A DNA stretch of 56,729 nt from Clostridia bacterium (lineage in GTDB: Bacteria > Bacillota > Clostridia > Christensenellales > UBA1242): the NCBI GenBank assembly GCA_017398655.1, contig JAFQFI010000016.1, positions 1 through 56,729 of the forward strand, read 5' to 3'. Position numbers and translations under genes: made by a program. Under the pieces are notes generated by a model. It searched no databases. It was not told the DNA's origin and saw only the letters and a program-made list of their open reading frames with translations. This document shows, one piece after another, positions 5,797 to 24,319 of this stretch (the stretch's first letter is position 1; the number at the start of each line of letters is the position of its first letter).

Positions 5797-6099
5797 ATGG
5801 AAATTGTTGAAACTTTAAAAAACGAAGAAGCACAAGAAAAAATCTTTTCCGAAAGCCAAGTTTCTTTGCAAAACAGAACAATATTAACAATAACGGGCGT
5901 AGAAAAAGTTTATGAAACAAACGAGGTGAAAGTTCAATTAAGGGTATCAAAATCAAATTTACTTATTACCGGAGAGGGTTTAAACATTTCTCGTCTTGAT
6001 GTAGAAACTGGTGTTATTCAAATTAACGGAACAATTAATGAATTAAAATATACAACAGCAGAAACAAAAGGAAATATATTTAAAAAGATTTTTAAATGA
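5797..6099 (+). CDS. yabP: Sporulation protein YabP family
   Basis: LQNRTILTITGVEKV...LLITGEGLNISRLDVETG.IQING.I..LKY...IFKKIFK signature; start moved to ATG 5797 after AAAGGG. Confidence 0.8.
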   Translation: MEIVETLKNEEAQEKIFSESQVSLQNRTILTITGVEKVYETNEVKVQLRVSKSNLLITGEGLNISRLDVETGVIQINGTINELKYTTAETKGNIFKKIFK

Positions 6100-6623
6100 T
6101 TTTATTTACAAGTTTTAATTACATAACAATATTCTTTCTGTTTGTATACTTAGGGCTTCTTTCTGGGTTAATTTTTAAAAGTTGTACTTTGTTTTTTAAT
6201 TATTTAACAATAAAAACAAAAAAGTGGCTTGAAAAAACGACTACAATTAGAAATAACCCCAAAACAAAGCAAATAGTAACAGAAATGTTAAACTACAAAA
6301 ATAGACCCCAAAAACAAAGAAAAAAACATATTTTTAAAAAATTTTTTGAAAAAGCAAAACAAAGCATAAAAAAAATATCAAATTATATTTTATATGTTTT
6401 TTATAAAAGCTTTCCAATATTAAGCTTTATAGCGTGTGTGTTTTTTACATATTTAATTAATTTATATTTAAACTTTGGACATTTGCGTTTAATTTATGTT
6501 TTAATTTGGGTTTTATTCTTTTTTGTAGGCAAAACACTTTGTAAATTGCTTGCCAATTATTTTTTGTGCTTTTATAATTATTTTATTAAAAGGATAAAAA
6601 AAGATGGAAGAGCAAAACAATAA
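6096..6623 (+). CDS. YabQ-like membrane protein (divergent)
   Basis: ATGA overlap with yabP; hydrophobic termini with LNFGHLRLIYVL resembling the YabQ N.G..R.Y motif; Lys-rich central insert. Confidence 0.55.
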   Translation: MILFTSFNYITIFFLFVYLGLLSGLIFKSCTLFFNYLTIKTKKWLEKTTTIRNNPKTKQIVTEMLNYKNRPQKQRKKHIFKKFFEKAKQSIKKISNYILYVFYKSFPILSFIACVFFTYLINLYLNFGHLRLIYVLIWVLFFFVGKTLCKLLANYFLCFYNYFIKRIKKDGRAKQ

Positions 6624-6798
6624 TAAAAGAAAGACAAAACTTTTAATGTTTACAATGATTGCTATTATTGCTATTTTGTTTGCAGGAATAATTTATCAAT
6701 TTGTAGTAATAAAATCTCTTCAAAAACAGGTTTCTGAAAACTCATCTGCATATGTTTATGTGCAAGAAATAAAAACAAAAGAAAATAATTTATATTAA
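6604..6798 (+). CDS. Small bitopic membrane protein in the DivIC/FtsL position
   Basis: Basic N-terminus, one TM segment, short amphipathic tail; follows yabP-yabQ; AAAGGA RBS. Confidence 0.5.
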   Translation: MEEQNNNKRKTKLLMFTMIAIIAILFAGIIYQFVVIKSLQKQVSENSSAYVYVQEIKTKENNLY

Positions 6799-6816
6799 AA
6801 AATTTTTATATAAAAC

Positions 6817-6845
6817 TTGACTAAATGCAGTAATATTTCTATAAT
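6817..6845 (+). promoter_or_regulatory. sigma-A promoter
   Basis: TTGACT-17 nt-TATAAT. Confidence 0.7.
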
Positions 6846-17468: not shown

Positions 17469-17544
17469 GGGCAATTAACTCAGTTGGTAGAGTGTCACTT
17501 TGACGTAGTGAAAGTCAGCAGTTCGAGTCTGTTATTGCCCACCA
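17469..17544 (+). tRNA. tRNA-Val(GAC)
   Basis: GGGCAAT/ATTGCCC acceptor stem, TCACT-TTGACGT-AGTGA anticodon arm, GTTCGAGT T-loop, encoded CCA. Confidence 0.95.
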
Positions 17545-17549
17545 AATAA

Positions 17550-17587
17550 AAAACCTAAACTTTAATCAGTTTAGGTTTTATTTTTTA
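17550..17587. terminator. Bidirectional terminator shared by tRNA-Val and the convergent operon
   Basis: AAAACCTAAACT / AGTTTAGGTTTT. Confidence 0.8.
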
Positions 17588-17615
17588 TTAAAAAATTTTA
17601 TAATACAATTTTTAA

Positions 17616-18575
17616 CTATTTAATTTTATTTATACTTTTTAAATATTCTTTTGTTTTTAAAACAATTTGTTCTATTGTCATATCTGTTACAGTAAAGCCA
17701 GCTTCTTTTTTGTGTCCACCACCACCAAAGTTGAAAGCAATTTTATCTGCTATTTCGCATTTATTGCTCATAGTTTTTGTAGTTATTATATTGCCATTTT
17801 TAATAAAAAGTAAGAAAATGTCAATTTCTTCAATTTTTCTTAATTCTTCTGCAATAACTTTTACAATTGAATTGTGAGAAAGTTTAGTAAATTCTTGTTT
17901 TTGTTGGTCTACTACAACATAATGAAAACCATCAAACTTTATTTCGCCTATAAGTTTAGATAATGCTTTAAACTCATACATACTTCGTTTAGAAAATGTT
18001 TCTTTAATTATTTCCACATAATTTACACCAGAGTTAATAAGTTTTTGTGCAATTGTTAAAGTTCTGTTTGATAATCTTCTTGTAAAGCAATTTGTGTCTG
18101 CCATCATACCAGCATATAGGCAGTTGCAAATTTTTAAATTTAAATTTTCTTTTTTACCAATTAGTTTAAAAATCAATTCACATGTAGAACTTTTTCCCGG
18201 TTCTGATAAAGTATAATTGGCTTCATATTTGTTATTTTGATGATGGTCAATATTAAATTTTATTATGGCATTGTCAAAATCTTTTTCGTATTCTCCAAGA
18301 CGAGATTTTTCGTTAACATCTAAAGCAATAAAATTATACTTGTTATCGTTAACATTATTTACAATTAAAGAGTTGTCTTTAAGCCAATCAATAATACTTT
18401 CGTCTTTTTTATTTAATAAAACTTTTACATTTTTACCAAGGTTTTTTAAATATTCTGCCAAAGCAATGCAAGAGCATACTGAATCTTGGTCTGGTTTTAT
18501 ATGTCCTGCCAAATAAATAGGTAAGTTGTTTGGCAGGTTAATTAATTGTTCTCTTATGTTTTTATAATTTATCAA
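17616..18575 (-). CDS. DHH/DHHA1 phosphoesterase (NrnA-like)
   Basis: GHIKPDQDS, ALDV, NIDHHQ, GMMADTNCF, GGGGHKKEAGF; TTG start overlaps upstream TGA stop; GGGAG RBS. Confidence 0.9.
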   Translation of the reverse strand: MINYKNIREQLINLPNNLPIYLAGHIKPDQDSVCSCIALAEYLKNLGKNVKVLLNKKDESIIDWLKDNSLIVNNVNDNKYNFIALDVNEKSRLGEYEKDFDNAIIKFNIDHHQNNKYEANYTLSEPGKSSTCELIFKLIGKKENLNLKICNCLYAGMMADTNCFTRRLSNRTLTIAQKLINSGVNYVEIIKETFSKRSMYEFKALSKLIGEIKFDGFHYVVVDQQKQEFTKLSHNSIVKVIAEELRKIEEIDIFLLFIKNGNIITTKTMSNKCEIADKIAFNFGGGGHKKEAGFTVTDMTIEQIVLKTKEYLKSINKIK

Positions 18576-20401
18576 TTTTGTTCTCCCATAAAAAACACAT
18601 TACTATGGTTAATTGTTGTGCTTACATCTACATCTTTTGCCCTTGTTTTGTAAGCAGTTGTAGAAACAGTTTGTTCATCTTTTTGACTTCTTGGAACTGT
18701 ATCAAATTGAATAAAAGGATAATTTTCTTTTATAAATTCTAATTCTGCAAGACTTTGCTCTCCCTTTTTTTCTGGGTGGTTAATCCAGTCAGAACCAACA
18801 TAAATTGCGCATGTACCACCAAGGTCGCTAACTTCTTTCATTCTTTGTAAAACTTCAGGAGGAGGAAGAATATCGTCATCTGTTGCATAAGCTTGGGTTA
18901 CCTCTCTAAATGCAGCAACAGTAGGAAGACGGTCTTTTAAAGGTGAGAAAGGAGATTTGCCTTTTCTTTGAATAGAGTATTCATCAGATTTAACACCAAT
19001 AAGTTTTTCTCTTGCACTAACAGATTCTATATATTTCATATGTCCATCGTGGAACATGTCATATACACCCGGAACATATGCTACATCATATTTTGTTGGT
19101 TGTGGTGTAAGTAGAGTAAAACCATCAATATCAATAATAGGTTCTGCAAGAGGGTTTCTAACATTTTTTGGAACCTCAACTTTACCAGATGTGTCTATAA
19201 TAAAAGCCCCTGATACCCCTTTTAAACTTTCTGCCCTGTGAAGTCGGAAAGATTCTGGGAAGATAGGAGGGTGGTCAGAAACAGTTTCTGCAAAATCATC
19301 AGATAAAACACCAACATATACTTCTTTATGATTTCTAAGTAAATGTTCAATAGCAACAATGTCTTTTTCTCTTAAAACATCCATAATACCAGATAAAACA
19401 ACTACGCCTTGACGGAAACTACCTGCTGTTTCTTGGTTTAATTGTTCAAATTGTTCATAAGGCATATCAACAATAGCAGAAATTGTTGCGTTAAAAGCAT
19501 CGTGTTTTCTATAATTTGGATGGCTCATTGTTATTTTTTTATTTAAATATCTAAATACCCTACCAATATCGCCTTCTATAAGTTTTGTTTGCAATACAGA
19601 ATCTCTAAATGTTGCATCTGCAAATAGTTCTTGATGATGTTTATAAATAAAACAGTAAGAAGCAAAAGTTTGGCATGCATTGTTAAAAACTTCTGGGTAT
19701 TGTTCAAAAACTTCATGGTTTCTAATATATATAGACCTAATGTCTGCAACAACAGCAGCTTTTTCGTCATTAGTCATATTTTCTTTATTTAATTGATAGT
19801 ATGCTAAAGCATCAAAATAAGGGTACATTTTATCAGAAACAAATCTTCTTAATGCTTTTGTTTCTTCAGGAGTTTCCCTTTTTAATTCTGGGGCTTTATA
19901 AATAGGGTCATGAGTTGCTTCGTGTGCAACAAATTGGTTTTTTGTTTTTACTTGAATTTCAATAGGAATACCATTATCAATAATATGAATTCTGCAGTTT
20001 TTGTAACCATCTTCTATGCTGTATCCTTTTTCTGGTACAGGGTCAAAAGCAGTATTAATAGTTGCTGGATTAGAGTGAGGGTTTTGTTTGTGACCGAGCG
20101 TTGAAAAAAGTACTTCTGCTAATGCTATACCTTGCTCTGTATTTTCTACAATACTCATAAAGCCCAAGTAATCTTTTAAAGTATCTGGAGAAGAAGTATA
20201 ATCCTTTTTCTCGTCGGTAGATGTTATTTTTGTTACAGCAGAAATTACTGACTTTAATCTTGCCAAGGTTAAAGTAACATCACCCATATTTTCAAGTTTT
20301 GATTTGTAGTTAATAACCATGTGTTGAAAAATTTCGCTTCCTGTGTGTCTTGTAATGTTTTGTAATATTTGTTTGTGAACAGAATGTTCTATTTTAGCCA
20401 T
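18572..20401 (-). CDS. RelA/SpoT synthetase-like domain fused to two cytidylyltransferase-like (TagD-type Rossmann) domains
   Basis: Synthetase motifs ARLKSVISAVTKI, KDYLGF, DGYKNCRIH, EIQVKT, HEATHDPIYK; degenerate CT domain (VLSGIMDVL...YVGVLSDDF); intact CT domain (PGVYDMFHDGH, IGVKSDEY, VGSDW, PR...VSTT). Confidence 0.75.
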   Translation of the reverse strand: MAKIEHSVHKQILQNITRHTGSEIFQHMVINYKSKLENMGDVTLTLARLKSVISAVTKITSTDEKKDYTSSPDTLKDYLGFMSIVENTEQGIALAEVLFSTLGHKQNPHSNPATINTAFDPVPEKGYSIEDGYKNCRIHIIDNGIPIEIQVKTKNQFVAHEATHDPIYKAPELKRETPEETKALRRFVSDKMYPYFDALAYYQLNKENMTNDEKAAVVADIRSIYIRNHEVFEQYPEVFNNACQTFASYCFIYKHHQELFADATFRDSVLQTKLIEGDIGRVFRYLNKKITMSHPNYRKHDAFNATISAIVDMPYEQFEQLNQETAGSFRQGVVVLSGIMDVLREKDIVAIEHLLRNHKEVYVGVLSDDFAETVSDHPPIFPESFRLHRAESLKGVSGAFIIDTSGKVEVPKNVRNPLAEPIIDIDGFTLLTPQPTKYDVAYVPGVYDMFHDGHMKYIESVSAREKLIGVKSDEYSIQRKGKSPFSPLKDRLPTVAAFREVTQAYATDDDILPPPEVLQRMKEVSDLGGTCAIYVGSDWINHPEKKGEQSLAELEFIKENYPFIQFDTVPRSQKDEQTVSTTAYKTRAKDVDVSTTINHSNVFFMGEQN

Positions 20402-20424
20402 AATTTTTTACCCTACTTTTTTGT

Positions 20425-20979
20425 TTAATTAAAATCTTTTAGTGTTTGTTTTAATAAAGTCATTAAACCCCTGTGTGTTTTTCCGTCATATGTTTTTATT
20501 ACATACTCAACAAGTTTTTTCTTTCTTGTTTTTTCAACAATATCTTTGCTATTTGACAATTTATTTAAACTTGCAATATATTCAGCCAACTTTATTTTGT
20601 TTAAATATGCAAAATCATCGTTTGCAAATGTATTTTTTAAATAATCTGGATTTTCTCTATCTAATAAAAGTTTGACACCTTCATAAGTATATTTGTCATA
20701 TTTTTTTTCTAACGAAAAAATATCATATCCAGTTTTCTTTACCAATAAATATAAAACGGCTGTATTTAAAACCATGTCCTCATAAGCGTTTCCGTCGTGG
20801 ACAAGGTGGTAAAGTACAGCCTTAATATCATCAACTATGTGTGATGCTAATTTTTTATTAAAATTATCTTTTATATGATTTTTTGCAAAATAGTAAGTTT
20901 CTTTCCAATTTCCTGTAAAAGGCATAGAAAGCCAACTATCGTCGTATGACACTGCGTTGGATAGAGCTTTTTCTTCCAT
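20425..20979 (-). CDS. Degenerate RelA/SpoT-type HD (Mesh1/SAH-like) pseudo-hydrolase
   Basis: Spacing matches the SpoT HD domain: YYFAKNH, TAVLYLLVKKTGY (AALLHDVVEDT), EGVKLL, KIKLAEYIASL (IKLADRLHNL); catalytic HD/ED residues absent. Confidence 0.55.
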   Translation of the reverse strand: MEEKALSNAVSYDDSWLSMPFTGNWKETYYFAKNHIKDNFNKKLASHIVDDIKAVLYHLVHDGNAYEDMVLNTAVLYLLVKKTGYDIFSLEKKYDKYTYEGVKLLLDRENPDYLKNTFANDDFAYLNKIKLAEYIASLNKLSNSKDIVEKTRKKKLVEYVIKTYDGKTHRGLMTLLKQTLKDFN

Positions 20980-21004
20980 AATATCCCTCTTTTAATTCAC
21001 TTTG

Positions 21005-21033
21005 ATTATATATCCTTTTAAAAAACAAGTCAA
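21005..21033 (-). promoter_or_regulatory. sigma-A promoter of the pseudo-HD / synthetase / DHH operon
   Basis: TTGACT-17 nt-TATAAT on minus strand. Confidence 0.7.
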
Positions 21034-21243
21034 TATGGCAAGTTGCCGAATAAATTTAAAACTAATTTTAAAAGGAAATTAATTATATAATAAACTTTAA
21101 ACTAAAACAAGAAAATTAAAGAAGGATGAGTATAAAAAAAGATTTTAAAAACAATAAAAATAATTGTAAAATACAACTATTTTGTTGATATAAATATTTT
21201 GTAGTGATAAACTAATAAAGCAATCTTATTTTTAGGTGATAAA

Positions 21244-22020
21244 ATGAAGAATAAAAGTACAGAAGAAAAAATTGTAAAAAAAGAACGCAAACTATGGTTT
21301 AGATGTTTAAAAAACATAATGAAAATGAGATATAAAAAACCACAGTTTATTTTTTTGGGCGAAGAGTTTAAAACAGGTGGAATTATATTAAGTAATCACG
21401 AAGGTACAGATGCTCCAATGTCACTTGAGATTTGGAATAATGCTCCTATTAGAATGTGGGGTGCACATGAAATGAACTCTGGTTTAATTAAAATGTATAA
21501 ATATCAATCAAGAGTTTATTATCACGAAAAAAAGCATTGGAATTTACATTTGGCACGCCTATTTTGTTTAATTGCAAGTCCTCTCACAAATATGTTTTAT
21601 AAAGGGCTTAATTTAATTTCTACTTATCGTGATACTCGTCTTATGAGAACTATAAAAGAAAGTATTAAGGCAATAGAAGAAGGTCAAAATATTGTTATAT
21701 ATCCAGAAAATTCTGAAGATGGATATCTTGCAGAGTTAAAAGGTTTTCATGCAGGTTTTGTTTTGCTTGCAGATACTTGTTTGAAAAAGGGAATAGATGT
21801 TCCAGTTTATGTTACATATTATAAGAAAAAAGAAAATCAGTATGTAATTGATGCTCCTGTTAACTATTCTGAAATTGTTAAAAAGTATAAAACTAAGGAA
21901 GAAATTACAAAAGCTTTATGTCAAAGATGCAATGAACTTGGAAAAATGCAATTTGAAAAAGAAATAAAAACTAAAAAAGAAAAAGCAAAAGAAGAACCTA
22001 AAAAAGAAATTACTAAGTAA
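21244..22020 (+). CDS. PlsC-family phospholipid/glycerol acyltransferase
   Basis: LSNHEGTD (NHxxxxD-like) and IVIYPEN motifs. Confidence 0.75.
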   Translation: MKNKSTEEKIVKKERKLWFRCLKNIMKMRYKKPQFIFLGEEFKTGGIILSNHEGTDAPMSLEIWNNAPIRMWGAHEMNSGLIKMYKYQSRVYYHEKKHWNLHLARLFCLIASPLTNMFYKGLNLISTYRDTRLMRTIKESIKAIEEGQNIVIYPENSEDGYLAELKGFHAGFVLLADTCLKKGIDVPVYVTYYKKKENQYVIDAPVNYSEIVKKYKTKEEITKALCQRCNELGKMQFEKEIKTKKEKAKEEPKKEITK

Positions 22021-22626: not shown

Positions 22627-22656
22627 AAAAATACGAGAAAAACTCTCGTATTTTTT
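22626..22656. terminator. Bidirectional terminator
   Basis: AAAAAATACGAGA / TCTCGTATTTTTT. Confidence 0.75.
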
Positions 22657-24319
22657 ATTCTTCTGGTAATAAAACACTTAAATCTTCTTCAGGTGTTTTT
22701 ATTTTGTTTATCATTCTTGTGGTTTCGTTAAAACTTGCATTATCTTCCATAAAAACATCTAATGCTGCTTCGTTATGAGGCAATCCACACCAGTTATCAA
22801 AAAAAGCTTCTAACTGTTCGTTTGTTACTTGTTGTTCTAAATTAAAGTTTACTGCAATATCAAAATGACCTGCATTCTTTGAGGTTATATTTACAACTTT
22901 ATCAAACAAATTATATCCGTGTATGTGTGTATTTGTTTCAAGCATTTCTCCACTTGTTTGTCTATGTACTGAAGCTTTGCCATGAAAGTAAGGTTTAACT
23001 TTATCTATTCTACAAATTTGTGAAGCAAGCGATATTCCCGGCCCAGATATAGCGTATAAAGCAATCTCTGCTGTGTTTTTATCTTCATTTGATGTAAGTG
23101 ATTTTACAAAAAGAGGGAAAGAACATTCTTTTAAATCACTTTCTTGTTGTATTAATTGTGTTGTATAAAGAGTTAATTCTTTAACTTGACCCTCTTCGCT
23201 TGGAAGTGAAATTTTTGTAATTGGATATTTTTTTTCTTTTAACAAACTTTGCACATAATCTTCGTTATATGCAAGTATTGATTGATTTTCTCTGTTAAGT
23301 TCTGGCAATTGTCTAACAACCCTTGTTGCGTTTGTTGAAGAAAAAGGAAATTTAGGGTAATTAGGGTTTTGACAAATAAATTGAGTTCCGTTAAAGAAAA
23401 TGTCGTTAGAAAGTAACCCGGTTTGCATACAAACAATTAAGTTGTTTATGTTTTGTAACAAACTTAAATCTTGGTCAAATTTTGAAGTGTCTATTTTTTT
23501 ATCTACTAATATTGTAAGCAAAGAATCGGGCTCTTTTAAAAGGTTTTGGTTTCGCATAAACATAAAAGTAGAATCTTCCAAACTTACATTTTGATAATAA
23601 GATAAAATTCCTCTTAAATATTCAATACTGATATCAAGCCCGGGATTTTTTATTGCTATTTTTTTTACTTCAAGTTCTTTTATTGCATTTGTATAATGTT
23701 GTGTTTTATCGTCAATATTTTGTTTTAAGGTGCTTATAAAACTTTTTACCTTAGATAAACTACAAGTAGATAGTTCTTGATGTGCAACACTAAACATAAA
23801 ACCATAAGTTTGGTCATTTATATTTGCAGGGTCTGCAAATTGAGATAAAAGTTTGCTTCTGCAAGATTCTAAATAAGCAGATTCTTCAGGTGAAAAACTT
23901 TCCGTATCTTCTGTTGCAGATTCTGCAACTTTTGAAACTTTTGATTTTACTCTATCTCCAATATGCAAACTTAAACCAATAAATAAATCTAATTCTGTTT
24001 CAAATCCGTTTTCTTTACCATAGTTGTTATAAAAATTAGAAACTGCATTGGTTAATATTTTACCTTGTGCTTTTTTAGAAGCATAAGTTGATGTATATCT
24101 AAGTGATGGACTTGTTAAAAATTCAAAAAGAGAGCGTAAATCATCTTCAACAACTGTGCCTTTTTCTTTTAACAAAGCCCTTGTTAAATTTCTTCTTGTA
24201 TCGTTATTCATACTTGAAGAATAAAGTTGTTGAGGTGAATTGCTTTTTGATTGAGTTGTTAAAGATTTTAATCCATTAATAATGTTTTTTATTAAAGGAT
24301 TTTTCAAAAAATTATCCAT
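22655..24319 (-). CDS. Orphan protein with C-terminal DUF6978-like His-rich domain
   Basis: QSLLKEKKYPITKISLPS...ICRID...H...GE....THIHGY...FFDNWCGL pattern; long helical N-terminus unrecognised. Confidence 0.5.
   Translation of the reverse strand: MDNFLKNPLIKNIINGLKSLTTQSKSNSPQQLYSSSMNNDTRRNLTRALLKEKGTVVEDDLRSLFEFLTSPSLRYTSTYASKKAQGKILTNAVSNFYNNYGKENGFETELDLFIGLSLHIGDRVKSKVSKVAESATEDTESFSPEESAYLESCRSKLLSQFADPANINDQTYGFMFSVAHQELSTCSLSKVKSFISTLKQNIDDKTQHYTNAIKELEVKKIAIKNPGLDISIEYLRGILSYYQNVSLEDSTFMFMRNQNLLKEPDSLLTILVDKKIDTSKFDQDLSLLQNINNLIVCMQTGLLSNDIFFNGTQFICQNPNYPKFPFSSTNATRVVRQLPELNRENQSILAYNEDYVQSLLKEKKYPITKISLPSEEGQVKELTLYTTQLIQQESDLKECSFPLFVKSLTSNEDKNTAEIALYAISGPGISLASQICRIDKVKPYFHGKASVHRQTSGEMLETNTHIHGYNLFDKVVNITSKNAGHFDIAVNFNLEQQVTNEQLEAFFDNWCGLPHNEAALDVFMEDNASFNETTRMINKIKTPEEDLSVLLPEE

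Follow-up and report, generated by a model that had tools for sequence, protein, structure and literature searches.

The minus strand of a 56,729-nucleotide contig from a Clostridia bacterium (the whole stretch analyzed here, referred to as the window) carries, within positions 17616 to 20979, three co-oriented genes that we tentatively read, at somewhat below an even chance, as an accessory nucleotide module built around an enzyme of the small-alarmone-synthetase (SAS) type, with a writer, a regulator, and an eraser. The putative writer, B609, is a fusion of a RelA/SpoT-type synthetase with a tandem cytidylyltransferase unit; the candidate regulator, A184, adopts the predicted fold of RelA/SpoT homolog (RSH) hydrolases; and the candidate eraser, C319, is a DHH/DHHA1 phosphoesterase. 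RelA/SpoT-type synthetases are known as enzymes of the stringent response, as toxins of toxin-antitoxin (TA) and secretion systems, and as effectors of phage defense. In the literature searched, we found neither a synthetase permanently joined to a cytidylyltransferase unit, nor a hydrolase-fold protein apparently turned from an enzyme into a binding partner, nor a dedicated DHH phosphoesterase where other systems place an alarmone hydrolase. No paper was retrieved on such a fusion or on a trio of SAS, small alarmone hydrolase (SAH), and DHH proteins, in agreement with the initial annotation of this DNA, which knew of no description of the architecture. Term searches of the accessible text of two RSH surveys (PMC3153485 and PMC7229694) likewise found no mention of the fusion, which may be listed in their supplementary subfamily tables.

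The three genes are as follows:

20425-20979, minus strand: A184 gene, 184 amino acids, ATG start at 20979
18572-20401, minus strand: B609 gene, 609 amino acids, RelA/SpoT-type synthetase and tandem cytidylyltransferase fusion
17616-18575, minus strand: C319 gene, 319 amino acids, TTG start, DHH/DHHA1 phosphoesterase

The same open reading frames (ORFs) had been delimited in the initial annotation, together with the 23-nucleotide spacer between A184 and B609 and the overlap of the B609 stop codon with the C319 start as TTGA, both of which we find as described; the sequence GGGAGAA 5' of the TTG is a good ribosome-binding site. That these are real genes is evident from their homologs, from the gene order kept in other genomes, and from intact variants in other animal-gut samples.

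A RelA/SpoT-type synthetase fused to a tandem cytidylyltransferase unit

B609 can be divided into four regions, all on the minus strand:

19763-20401: residues 1-213, small-alarmone-synthetase (RelA/SpoT) domain
19412-19762: residues 214-330, conserved helical linker region
19112-19411: residues 331-430, degenerate first cytidylyltransferase-like Rossmann domain, without HxGH
18572-19111: residues 431-609, CCT/ECT/TagD-type cytidylyltransferase domain with intact motifs

The RelA_SpoT match of B609 (residues 48 to 170) is weak, reaching 20.7 bits and thus falling below the Pfam cutoff of 27, but it is real, as judged from PF04607 in its homologs, from invariant motifs, and from profile and fold matches. 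PF04607 is carried along with PF01467 by 21 of 23 homologs, and the synthetase motifs R48-x-K50-xxx-S54-xxx-K58, D77-xx-G80, G132-Y133, and E148-I-Q150-x-K-T, which HMMER aligned to those of RelSeq, are invariant in all 23 relatives, with methionine in B609 replacing the usual arginine after DxxG. A profile of the N-terminal 215 residues found RelSeq as its best match (E = 4.2e-5), followed more weakly by another GTP pyrophosphokinase, RelP, and RelQ, and it also matched FaRel2 weakly. In the AlphaFold2 model, which has a mean predicted local distance difference test score (pLDDT) of 84.8 and helices at residues 178 to 324, residues 14 to 213 align to RelQ (5ded; Z = 9.8, 172 residues aligned), residues 331 to 590 to the tandem cytidylyltransferase human ECT (4xsv; Z = 15.3, 219 residues aligned), and residues 437 to 590 to TagD and CCT (Z = 10.3 to 12.3). 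Foldseek ranked ECT first and second and CapRel third (E = 3.8e-6). The N-terminal part thus does model as a RelA/SpoT synthetase fold, and the proposal of such a synthetase fused to tandem Rossmann domains is borne out. The accompanying suggestion that the gene order reflects a split N-terminal half of Rel holds as a likeness, the fold being closest to small alarmone synthetases among the listed chains. Given this SAS-like fold and the stand-alone relatives that share its helical extension, descent of B609 from a long Rel is not established.

These stand-alone relatives, of 331 to 376 amino acids, share both the synthetase domain and the helical region (profile positions 143 to 331 matched), the latter being marked in the fusion by the invariant residues D220, R227, N228, and R281. 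Five of them (P0200, P0219, P0220, P0231, and P0266) combine a G-x-M variant of DxxGxR with the helical extension, and such proteins may represent the free-standing parent family of the synthetase part. Stand-alone tandem-cytidylyltransferase proteins of about 270 amino acids exist as well. A Pfam scan of B609 detected no TGS, ZFD, or ACT domain.

The C-terminal domain is a clear member of the cytidylyltransferase family (CTP_transf_like, PF01467, at residues 442 to 587; E = 1.7e-13, 51.4 bits against a cutoff of 21), and the sequence of this second Rossmann domain matches ECT (4.7e-22), CCT (4.5e-11), and TagD (4.3e-8). Its HxGH motif is kept in 20 of 23 members, including the window copy, which also features K471, GSDW, and the (R/V)S(S/T)T motif; the first Rossmann domain has SG..D.LR.KD at the HxGH position. 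Two of the three members without HxGH have lost other cytidylyltransferase motifs, too. As the synthetase motifs are present in 23 of 23 members and HxGH in 20 of 23, the synthetase appears to be the constant activity, with a cytidylyltransferase that is mostly intact.

The close relationship to ECT, CCT, and TagD, whose motifs the domain keeps, would fit a metabolic enzyme that uses its C-terminal domain to produce a CDP-alcohol (CDP-glycerol, CDP-choline, or CDP-ethanolamine) destined for wall polymers or lipids, while the synthetase-like domain regulates this production and the DHH protein recycles by-products. Six of 10 fusion genomes indeed encode a TagF-type glycerophosphotransferase, and one more encodes LicD, yet neither is found in genomes G201 and G277 or in the incomplete 0.7-Mb genome G204, and the host genome has a separate TagD-like protein. 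Moreover, two or three of the 23 members have lost cytidylyltransferase motifs while all keep those of the synthetase, and the linked SAH-fold protein and the dedicated DHH protein are left unexplained. We therefore regard this metabolic role as quite unlikely. The TagF and LicD searches of the fusion genomes gave no clear pattern, and the link to wall polymers was set aside.

An alternative end of coenzyme A (CoA) synthesis was also considered, in which the Rossmann part would be a PPAT, the synthetase domain would phosphorylate the 3'-OH of dephospho-CoA, and the DHH protein would trim the product. PPAT matches both Rossmann halves weakly (the first at residues 337 to 413), and the host shows no CoaE match, its CoaD-like proteins being limited to the fusion and one TagD-like protein. 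CoaE is, however, above the cutoff in just 2 of 31 genomes sampled from the family (0.8 to 1.3 Mb), at least 28 of which are without a full-length fusion, three fusion-bearing genomes do have CoaE, and PPAT is a much more distant relative of the domain than are ECT, CCT, and TagD. This idea is highly improbable and was dropped, because the family mostly does without CoaE irrespective of the fusion and because CoaE is present in those three fusion genomes.

Separately, host contig C38 (positions 217 to 882) encodes a stand-alone cytidylyltransferase-like protein of 221 amino acids, whose amino acid makeup differs from that of the remainder of this AT-rich genome and which lies about 1.7 kb from an ORF of 438 amino acids that resembles, by eye, a tyrosine-recombinase-type integrase. 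The 221-amino-acid protein may be foreign or a binning contaminant.

Conserved linkage of the three genes

Gene neighborhood analysis, as proposed in the initial annotation, revealed a stable association. In eight fusion loci taken from contigs of one genome per species, a DHH ortholog (53 to 65% identical to C319) lies directly downstream of the fusion in all eight, and an A184 homolog lies directly upstream in seven, the exception being locus L003. A ninth genome, G277, from the same genus as the host, has the fusion-DHH pair without A184, its DHH protein being 40 to 44% identical. Altogether, the fusion is followed by the DHH gene at all nine loci and preceded by an A184 homolog at seven of them. 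Approached from the DHH side, a metagenome search gave four loci, one of them a 20-residue fragment, and the fusion was found upstream in the three informative ones, of which one is apparently the G277 contig again. The spacing is tight throughout, with gaps of 2 to 32 nucleotides between the A184 and fusion genes and of -7 to +2 nucleotides between the fusion and DHH genes in 9 of 10 loci, the remaining value stemming from an ORF call that was extended. Pairwise identities also covary across loci (r = 0.95 for A184 and B609 and 0.76 for B609 and C319).

The flanks of the trio differ among loci and consist of housekeeping genes throughout, such as those for DnaX, a sigma factor, a SpoU methylase, a small RNase III-domain protein, TrkAH, GreA, pyruvate formate-lyase, and a histidine phosphatase; no integrases or defense genes were seen in the inspected neighborhoods. 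A search against the 2023 PADLOC library returned no match for B609 or C319 and one noise-level match for A184. A phage origin of the trio was dropped, since no relative was found in the viral contigs searched.

A hydrolase-fold partner predicted to bind the synthetase domain

A184 has no Pfam or NCBIfam match (HD_4 gave none at E values up to 1), and none of 42 A184 clusters carries a Pfam family. Its AlphaFold2 model (pLDDT 87.9), aligned to 48,161 representative chains independently of Foldseek, nevertheless points to one fold: the nine best matches are all RSH hydrolases (Z = 12.5 to 16.8), among them the Pseudomonas aeruginosa SAH (6z3n; Z = 16.8, 160 residues aligned), Mesh1 (16.1), SpoT (15.0), and Rel (14.6). 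Ranks 10 to 13 are other hydrolases of the HD superfamily (Z = 10.8 to 11.8), the first match without an HD domain scores 8.1, and the top Foldseek matches agree with the RSH hydrolase fold. Across the 43 members of the A184 family, the HD dyad is lost in 33 and kept in 10, and the histidine at position 35 is kept in only 4, while other positions are nearly invariant (G63 and E67 in 43 of 43, D68 in 39, and K128 in 42). As judged from these residues, the family seems to retain an enzyme fold for a purpose other than metal-dependent catalysis. The first gene had been called a pseudo-HD protein; this fits the RSH hydrolase fold and the family as a whole, but less surely the window copy, in which the dyad is present and H35, H61, and D62 are all retained. 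The dyad is likewise present at L001 and L002, which together with the window come from genomes without Rel, and is lost at L004 to L007, from genomes with Rel.

Complex modeling, another step suggested from the outset, covered the A184-B609 pair. With full-length B609, three runs gave ipSAE values of 0.82, 0.83, and 0.78, compared with 0.00 for the best of three controls; the same mark is reached by 58 of 80 solved complexes and by 2 of 110 mismatched pairs. Contact agreement between runs was at least 59%, and partner pLDDT at least 83. On the A184 side, the predicted interface comprises residues 57 to 70 and 121 to 128, that is, the former active-site region including E67 and K128; on the B609 side, it comprises residues 23 to 49 (strand 1, which contains R48, and the helix that precedes it), M82, and residues 257 to 274. 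The model thus supports binding of A184 to the synthetase domain of B609. As Rel N-terminal structures that pair both folds have been solved, this result shows likeness to them and supports, but does not demonstrate, binding.

A DHH/DHHA1 phosphoesterase dedicated to the module

The assignment of the third gene to the DHH/DHHA1 phosphoesterases stands, in view of its domains, its catalytic motifs, and its closest solved relatives. The DHH match is strong (E = 3.5e-22), DHHA1 scores 25.2 bits against a cutoff of 25.9, and the best solved relatives are TmPDE (3.6e-33) and NrnA (1.4e-31), with Rv2837c also found. Against the NCBIfam equivalog model of NrnA, C319 reaches 84.9 bits (cutoff, 350). 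All 10 trio-linked DHH copies keep the DxD, D, DHH, and GGGH motifs, and they share further features: a K-x-M-(S/T)-N motif (A-K-x-M-(S/T)-N) in 10 of 10, at a site where 12 of 12 housekeeping paralogs have arginine, as well as T-R-R and K-K following the DTN and GGGH motifs, respectively. According to the accessible text of the review PMC9779919, the RxRxR motif of NrnA contacts substrate phosphates, including the 5' phosphate. Given that the arginine at this site is replaced by methionine in C319, a changed substrate is a reasonable inference.

C319 is a paralog dedicated to the module and distinct from housekeeping NrnA. The NrnA-like housekeeping DHH/DHHA1 gene of the host lies between infB and truB on contig C39 (positions 5861 to 6823), encodes a protein that retains the substrate-motif arginine and is 31% identical to C319, and is accompanied in the genome by a RecJ-like gene. 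A separate NrnA-like paralog (27 to 32% identical) and a RecJ-like protein were present in 11 of 11 genomes checked.

Distribution, strain variants, and relation to Rel

The host genome (G000) is 1.27 Mb in size, with 28% G+C and 97% completeness, and the records related to it are gut "Clostridia bacterium" metagenome-assembled genomes. The module is rare and patchy among its relatives. Of 201 genomes sampled from the order, only G000 itself proved to have a full-length fusion; 12 other matching genomes hold the cytidylyltransferase part alone. Of 101 genomes from the family, two, G000 and G277, have a full-length copy. In a set of 1.84 billion proteins clustered at 50% identity, about 20 full-length representatives were counted among the best 150 of 11,838 matches; all of these are at most 666 amino acids long, and no form fused to A184 or to the DHH protein occurs among those 150. 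An Atlas cluster of 83 members is labeled "hypothetical protein" only, and cluster lookups gave no names for eight proteins queried and elsewhere just "hypothetical protein" and "DHH family phosphoesterase." The two fusion copies from the same genus, those of G000 and G277, are 32% identical and lie at different loci, and in G227, also of this genus, the pyk-tRNA-Val synteny is kept without the trio, a trio-type DHH protein, or any RSH domain.

Such a distribution would suit a true TA or anti-phage module, in which B609 would be a toxic SAS that halts growth, whether by making (pp)pApp or (p)ppGpp or by pyrophosphorylating tRNA CCA ends, A184 a type II-like protein antitoxin, and C319 a type IV-like enzymatic one that clears the toxic product. 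As in toxSAS loci, the genes overlap or are closely coupled, FaRel itself being described in the accessible text of PMC7229694 as part of a three-gene operon with an SAH upstream; within one genus, two species hold diverged copies at different loci and a third holds none; CapRel takes third place in the Foldseek ranking of the fusion; and A184 is predicted to touch strand 40 to 49, which contains R48. Several observations nonetheless speak against it. PADLOC yielded no match for B609 or C319, the viral contigs searched held no relative, and the inspected neighborhoods are of the housekeeping type, the host's other SAS being the one that sits in a defense-like cluster (see below). In addition, a cytidylyltransferase unit of 280 residues that is mostly catalytically intact would be unexpected on a toxin, the solved antitoxin domains pZFD and Tis1 (accessible text of PMC11782079) were not seen in the trio, and A184 is absent at 2 of 10 loci. 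We consider a TA or anti-phage function doubtful, if well worth keeping in mind.

The relation of the trio to Rel bears on a further explanation, namely, that it is the housekeeping (p)ppGpp system of the lineage, with the fusion making (p)ppGpp where long Rel has been lost, the DHH protein replacing the missing hydrolase, and A184 being a remnant of the Rel hydrolase domain. No HD_4 domain was detected in G000, G201, G202, G203, G208, or G277, and the fusion is the only RelA_SpoT match in G201, G202, G203, and G277; by sequence, the synthetase domain matches a long Rel (RelSeq) best; and the A184 copies of the window, L001, and L002 have kept the HD dyad, which is lost in the Rel-bearing L004 to L007. 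On the other hand, four of eight fusion genomes (G204 to G207) also encode long Rel proteins of about 700 amino acids, one or two per genome, so that the trio accompanies Rel in some genomes and is the only RSH system of others. The module is also dispensable, as G227 has neither trio nor any RSH domain. Of the 100 other family genomes sampled, 99 are without a full-length fusion, and the copies within the genus are highly diverged and differently placed. The absence from close relatives argues against a simple replacement of Rel, and we judge the housekeeping explanation unlikely. Both it and the CDP-alcohol explanation account for fewer observations than does an accessory module with writer, regulator, and eraser.

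The host encodes a second RelA_SpoT protein, an SAS of 357 amino acids (65 bits) located outside the window on contig C65 (L079:1907-6609). It is part of a co-oriented run consisting of an HTH_3 protein, a Peptidase_M78 (ImmA/IrrE-like) protein, a 260-amino-acid protein, the SAS, and a 449-amino-acid Mrr_cat protein. This cluster looks like a defense or TA island, unlike the setting of the trio.

Near-identical DNA was detected in animal-gut metagenomes: eight runs from six studies contain at least half of the sampled words, one of the eight possibly being the source of the window itself. A contig from another study spans positions 17481 to 21100 with 45 differences and a single 1-nucleotide insertion in the A184-B609 spacer. 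This insertion (a T at 20416, in the 23-nucleotide spacer) occurs in two independent gut samples, and all three reading frames are intact. In the variant counts, which cover 40 of 53 differences, 25 of 28 changes in the fusion are synonymous (25 synonymous, 3 nonsynonymous), and A184 has 3 synonymous changes and 1 nonsynonymous change.

Expression signals and neighboring genes

Three further features flank the trio:

21005-21033, minus strand: promoter-like site, TTGACT-17-TATAAT, 11 of 12 positions, about 25 nucleotides upstream of the A184 ATG
17550-17579, both strands: terminator-like hairpin, 12 bp, with T runs on both strands
17469-17544, plus strand: tRNA-Val, convergent with C319, the hairpin lying between both

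The initial annotation had listed the first of these as a consensus promoter. The match and its place before the ATG are as described, but promoter-like matches occur in this AT-rich region at chance frequency (28 found versus 29.5 expected in shuffles), so that the site is supported by its position alone. The terminator proposed to be common to the operon and tRNA-Val corresponds to the two-way hairpin. An Rfam search of 10 trio loci found tRNAs only and no riboswitch or other RNA element. An RNA-library run yielded two small contigs, at 20125 to 20300 and 20371 to 20469; as such libraries may contain DNA, these contigs are no proof of expression.

Two ORFs adjoin the operon, one of 554 amino acids (22655-24319, minus strand) and one of 258 amino acids (21244-22020, plus strand). 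Neither has a Pfam match at E = 0.001, and the 258-amino-acid protein is 80% identical to the product of an L003 gene. In the clade of L004 to L007, a gene of about 220 amino acids (L004:7876-8526, L006:7849-8514, and L007:5394-6068) comes next after the trio and then an ORF of 167 amino acids, after which L004 and L006 have an ORF of 749 amino acids. The L006 copies were scanned and matched Phage_30_3 (T4 gp30.3-like, E = 3.4e-25), GreA, and pyruvate formate-lyase; the other loci were judged by size and position.

A possible writer/regulator/eraser mechanism

How might the three proteins work together? The domain identities, the conservation of motifs, the linkage of the genes, and their distribution are established by the present data. 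In the scheme that we tentatively favor, the A184-B609 complex is a prediction, whereas what the enzymes catalyze, what they produce, and that C319 erases it are what we infer. B609, as the writer, would most likely transfer the beta-gamma pyrophosphate of ATP to the 3'-OH of a nucleotide acceptor, as its synthetase motifs suggest. Its ECT-like pseudo-dimer might carry out a second nucleotidyl transfer or, alternatively, bind CTP or a CDP-alcohol and thereby control the synthetase. A184, as the regulator, is predicted to grip the synthetase domain at its N-terminal helix and first strand by means of the former active-site cleft, a role that would, by analogy, be akin to that of the inactive hydrolase domain of RelA or of a protein antitoxin. 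C319, as the eraser, could hydrolyze the product or a 3'-phosphorylated by-product in its remodeled substrate pocket.

It is tempting to speculate that both halves of B609 act in sequence on a single molecule and, in either order, add a 3'-pyrophosphate and cap a phosphate with CMP, resulting in a hybrid nucleotide new to biology that would be erased by the DHH protein and gated by A184. Gut Clostridia would then have a novel system of second messengers or alarmones, but we hold this version to be improbable, and the chance of new chemistry in the trio in general to be modest.

Several points weigh against the writer/regulator/eraser scheme as a whole. The mostly intact cytidylyltransferase motifs are without an assigned role in it. 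A184 is missing at 2 of 10 loci (L003 and G277) and is thus not obligatory, and the window copy, which keeps H61-D62, could hydrolyze rather than just bind. The complex prediction, which was based on our own alignments, may have passed because the model remembers solved Rel structures that pair both folds. The DHH protein might instead clear a generic by-product, for instance, pAp or short oligonucleotides, and the listed variants of C319 (2 synonymous and 6 nonsynonymous, a small sample) do not indicate strong constraint.

If the product of the module is new, it would widen the chemistry of bacterial signaling nucleotides. If it is instead (p)ppGpp or (p)ppApp, the trio would represent a new route for the control and removal of these alarmones in genomes of very small size, of which half lack any further RSH hydrolase domain. 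As the operon is short and has no accessory genes, it is directly testable in laboratory strains.

Comparison with known systems

The closest counterpart in terms of gene order is the tripartite FaRel operon (ATfaRel SAH, FaRel, and AT2faRel), which likewise has an SAH-fold gene, an SAS, and a third gene downstream with tight spacing. In the accessible text of PMC7229694, the third gene is neutralizing. The FaRel SAH is an active hydrolase, whereas the dyad is lost in most A184 family members. B609 differs from FaRel by its 280-residue tandem cytidylyltransferase unit, and the third gene of the trio encodes a DHH/DHHA1 protein rather than an antitoxin of the Tis1 or pZFD type covered in the accessible text of PMC11782079.

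With the N-terminal region of long RSH proteins, the trio shares the pairing of a hydrolase fold and a synthetase, as reflected by RelSeq as the best sequence match of B609 and by the Z scores of 14.6 to 15.0 for A184 against Rel and SpoT. The hydrolase domain of RelA is inactive. In the trio, however, the parts are separate genes, TGS, ZFD, and ACT domains are lacking, and the C terminus is a cytidylyltransferase pseudo-dimer. CapRel, a fused toxSAS-antitoxin and tRNA pyrophosphokinase, resembles B609 in joining an SAS domain and a C-terminal extension in one chain, but the superposition is poor (TM-score of 0.20 to 0.22, root mean square deviation of about 13 Å), and B609 has no pseudo-zinc-finger domain and no phage or defense context.

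ECT/Pcyt2, along with CCT and TagD, provides the counterpart of the C-terminal unit: as in ECT, tandem cytidylyltransferase folds are found in one chain, and the second repeat of B609 has the HxGH and Ser/Thr-rich motifs. The unit differs in that its first repeat is without HxGH and in that it is fused to an alarmone-synthetase domain. Finally, C319 has the two-domain architecture and all catalytic motifs in common with NrnA, Pde2, Rv2837c, and TmPDE. It is set apart from NrnA-type enzymes by its score below the equivalog cutoff, by methionine in place of arginine in the RxRxR region, and by the gained RR and KK pairs, and every genome checked has a canonical NrnA alongside it. As a precedent for an "eraser" of the DHH type, the enzyme NrN removes the SAM-AMP signal used by some type III CRISPR systems.

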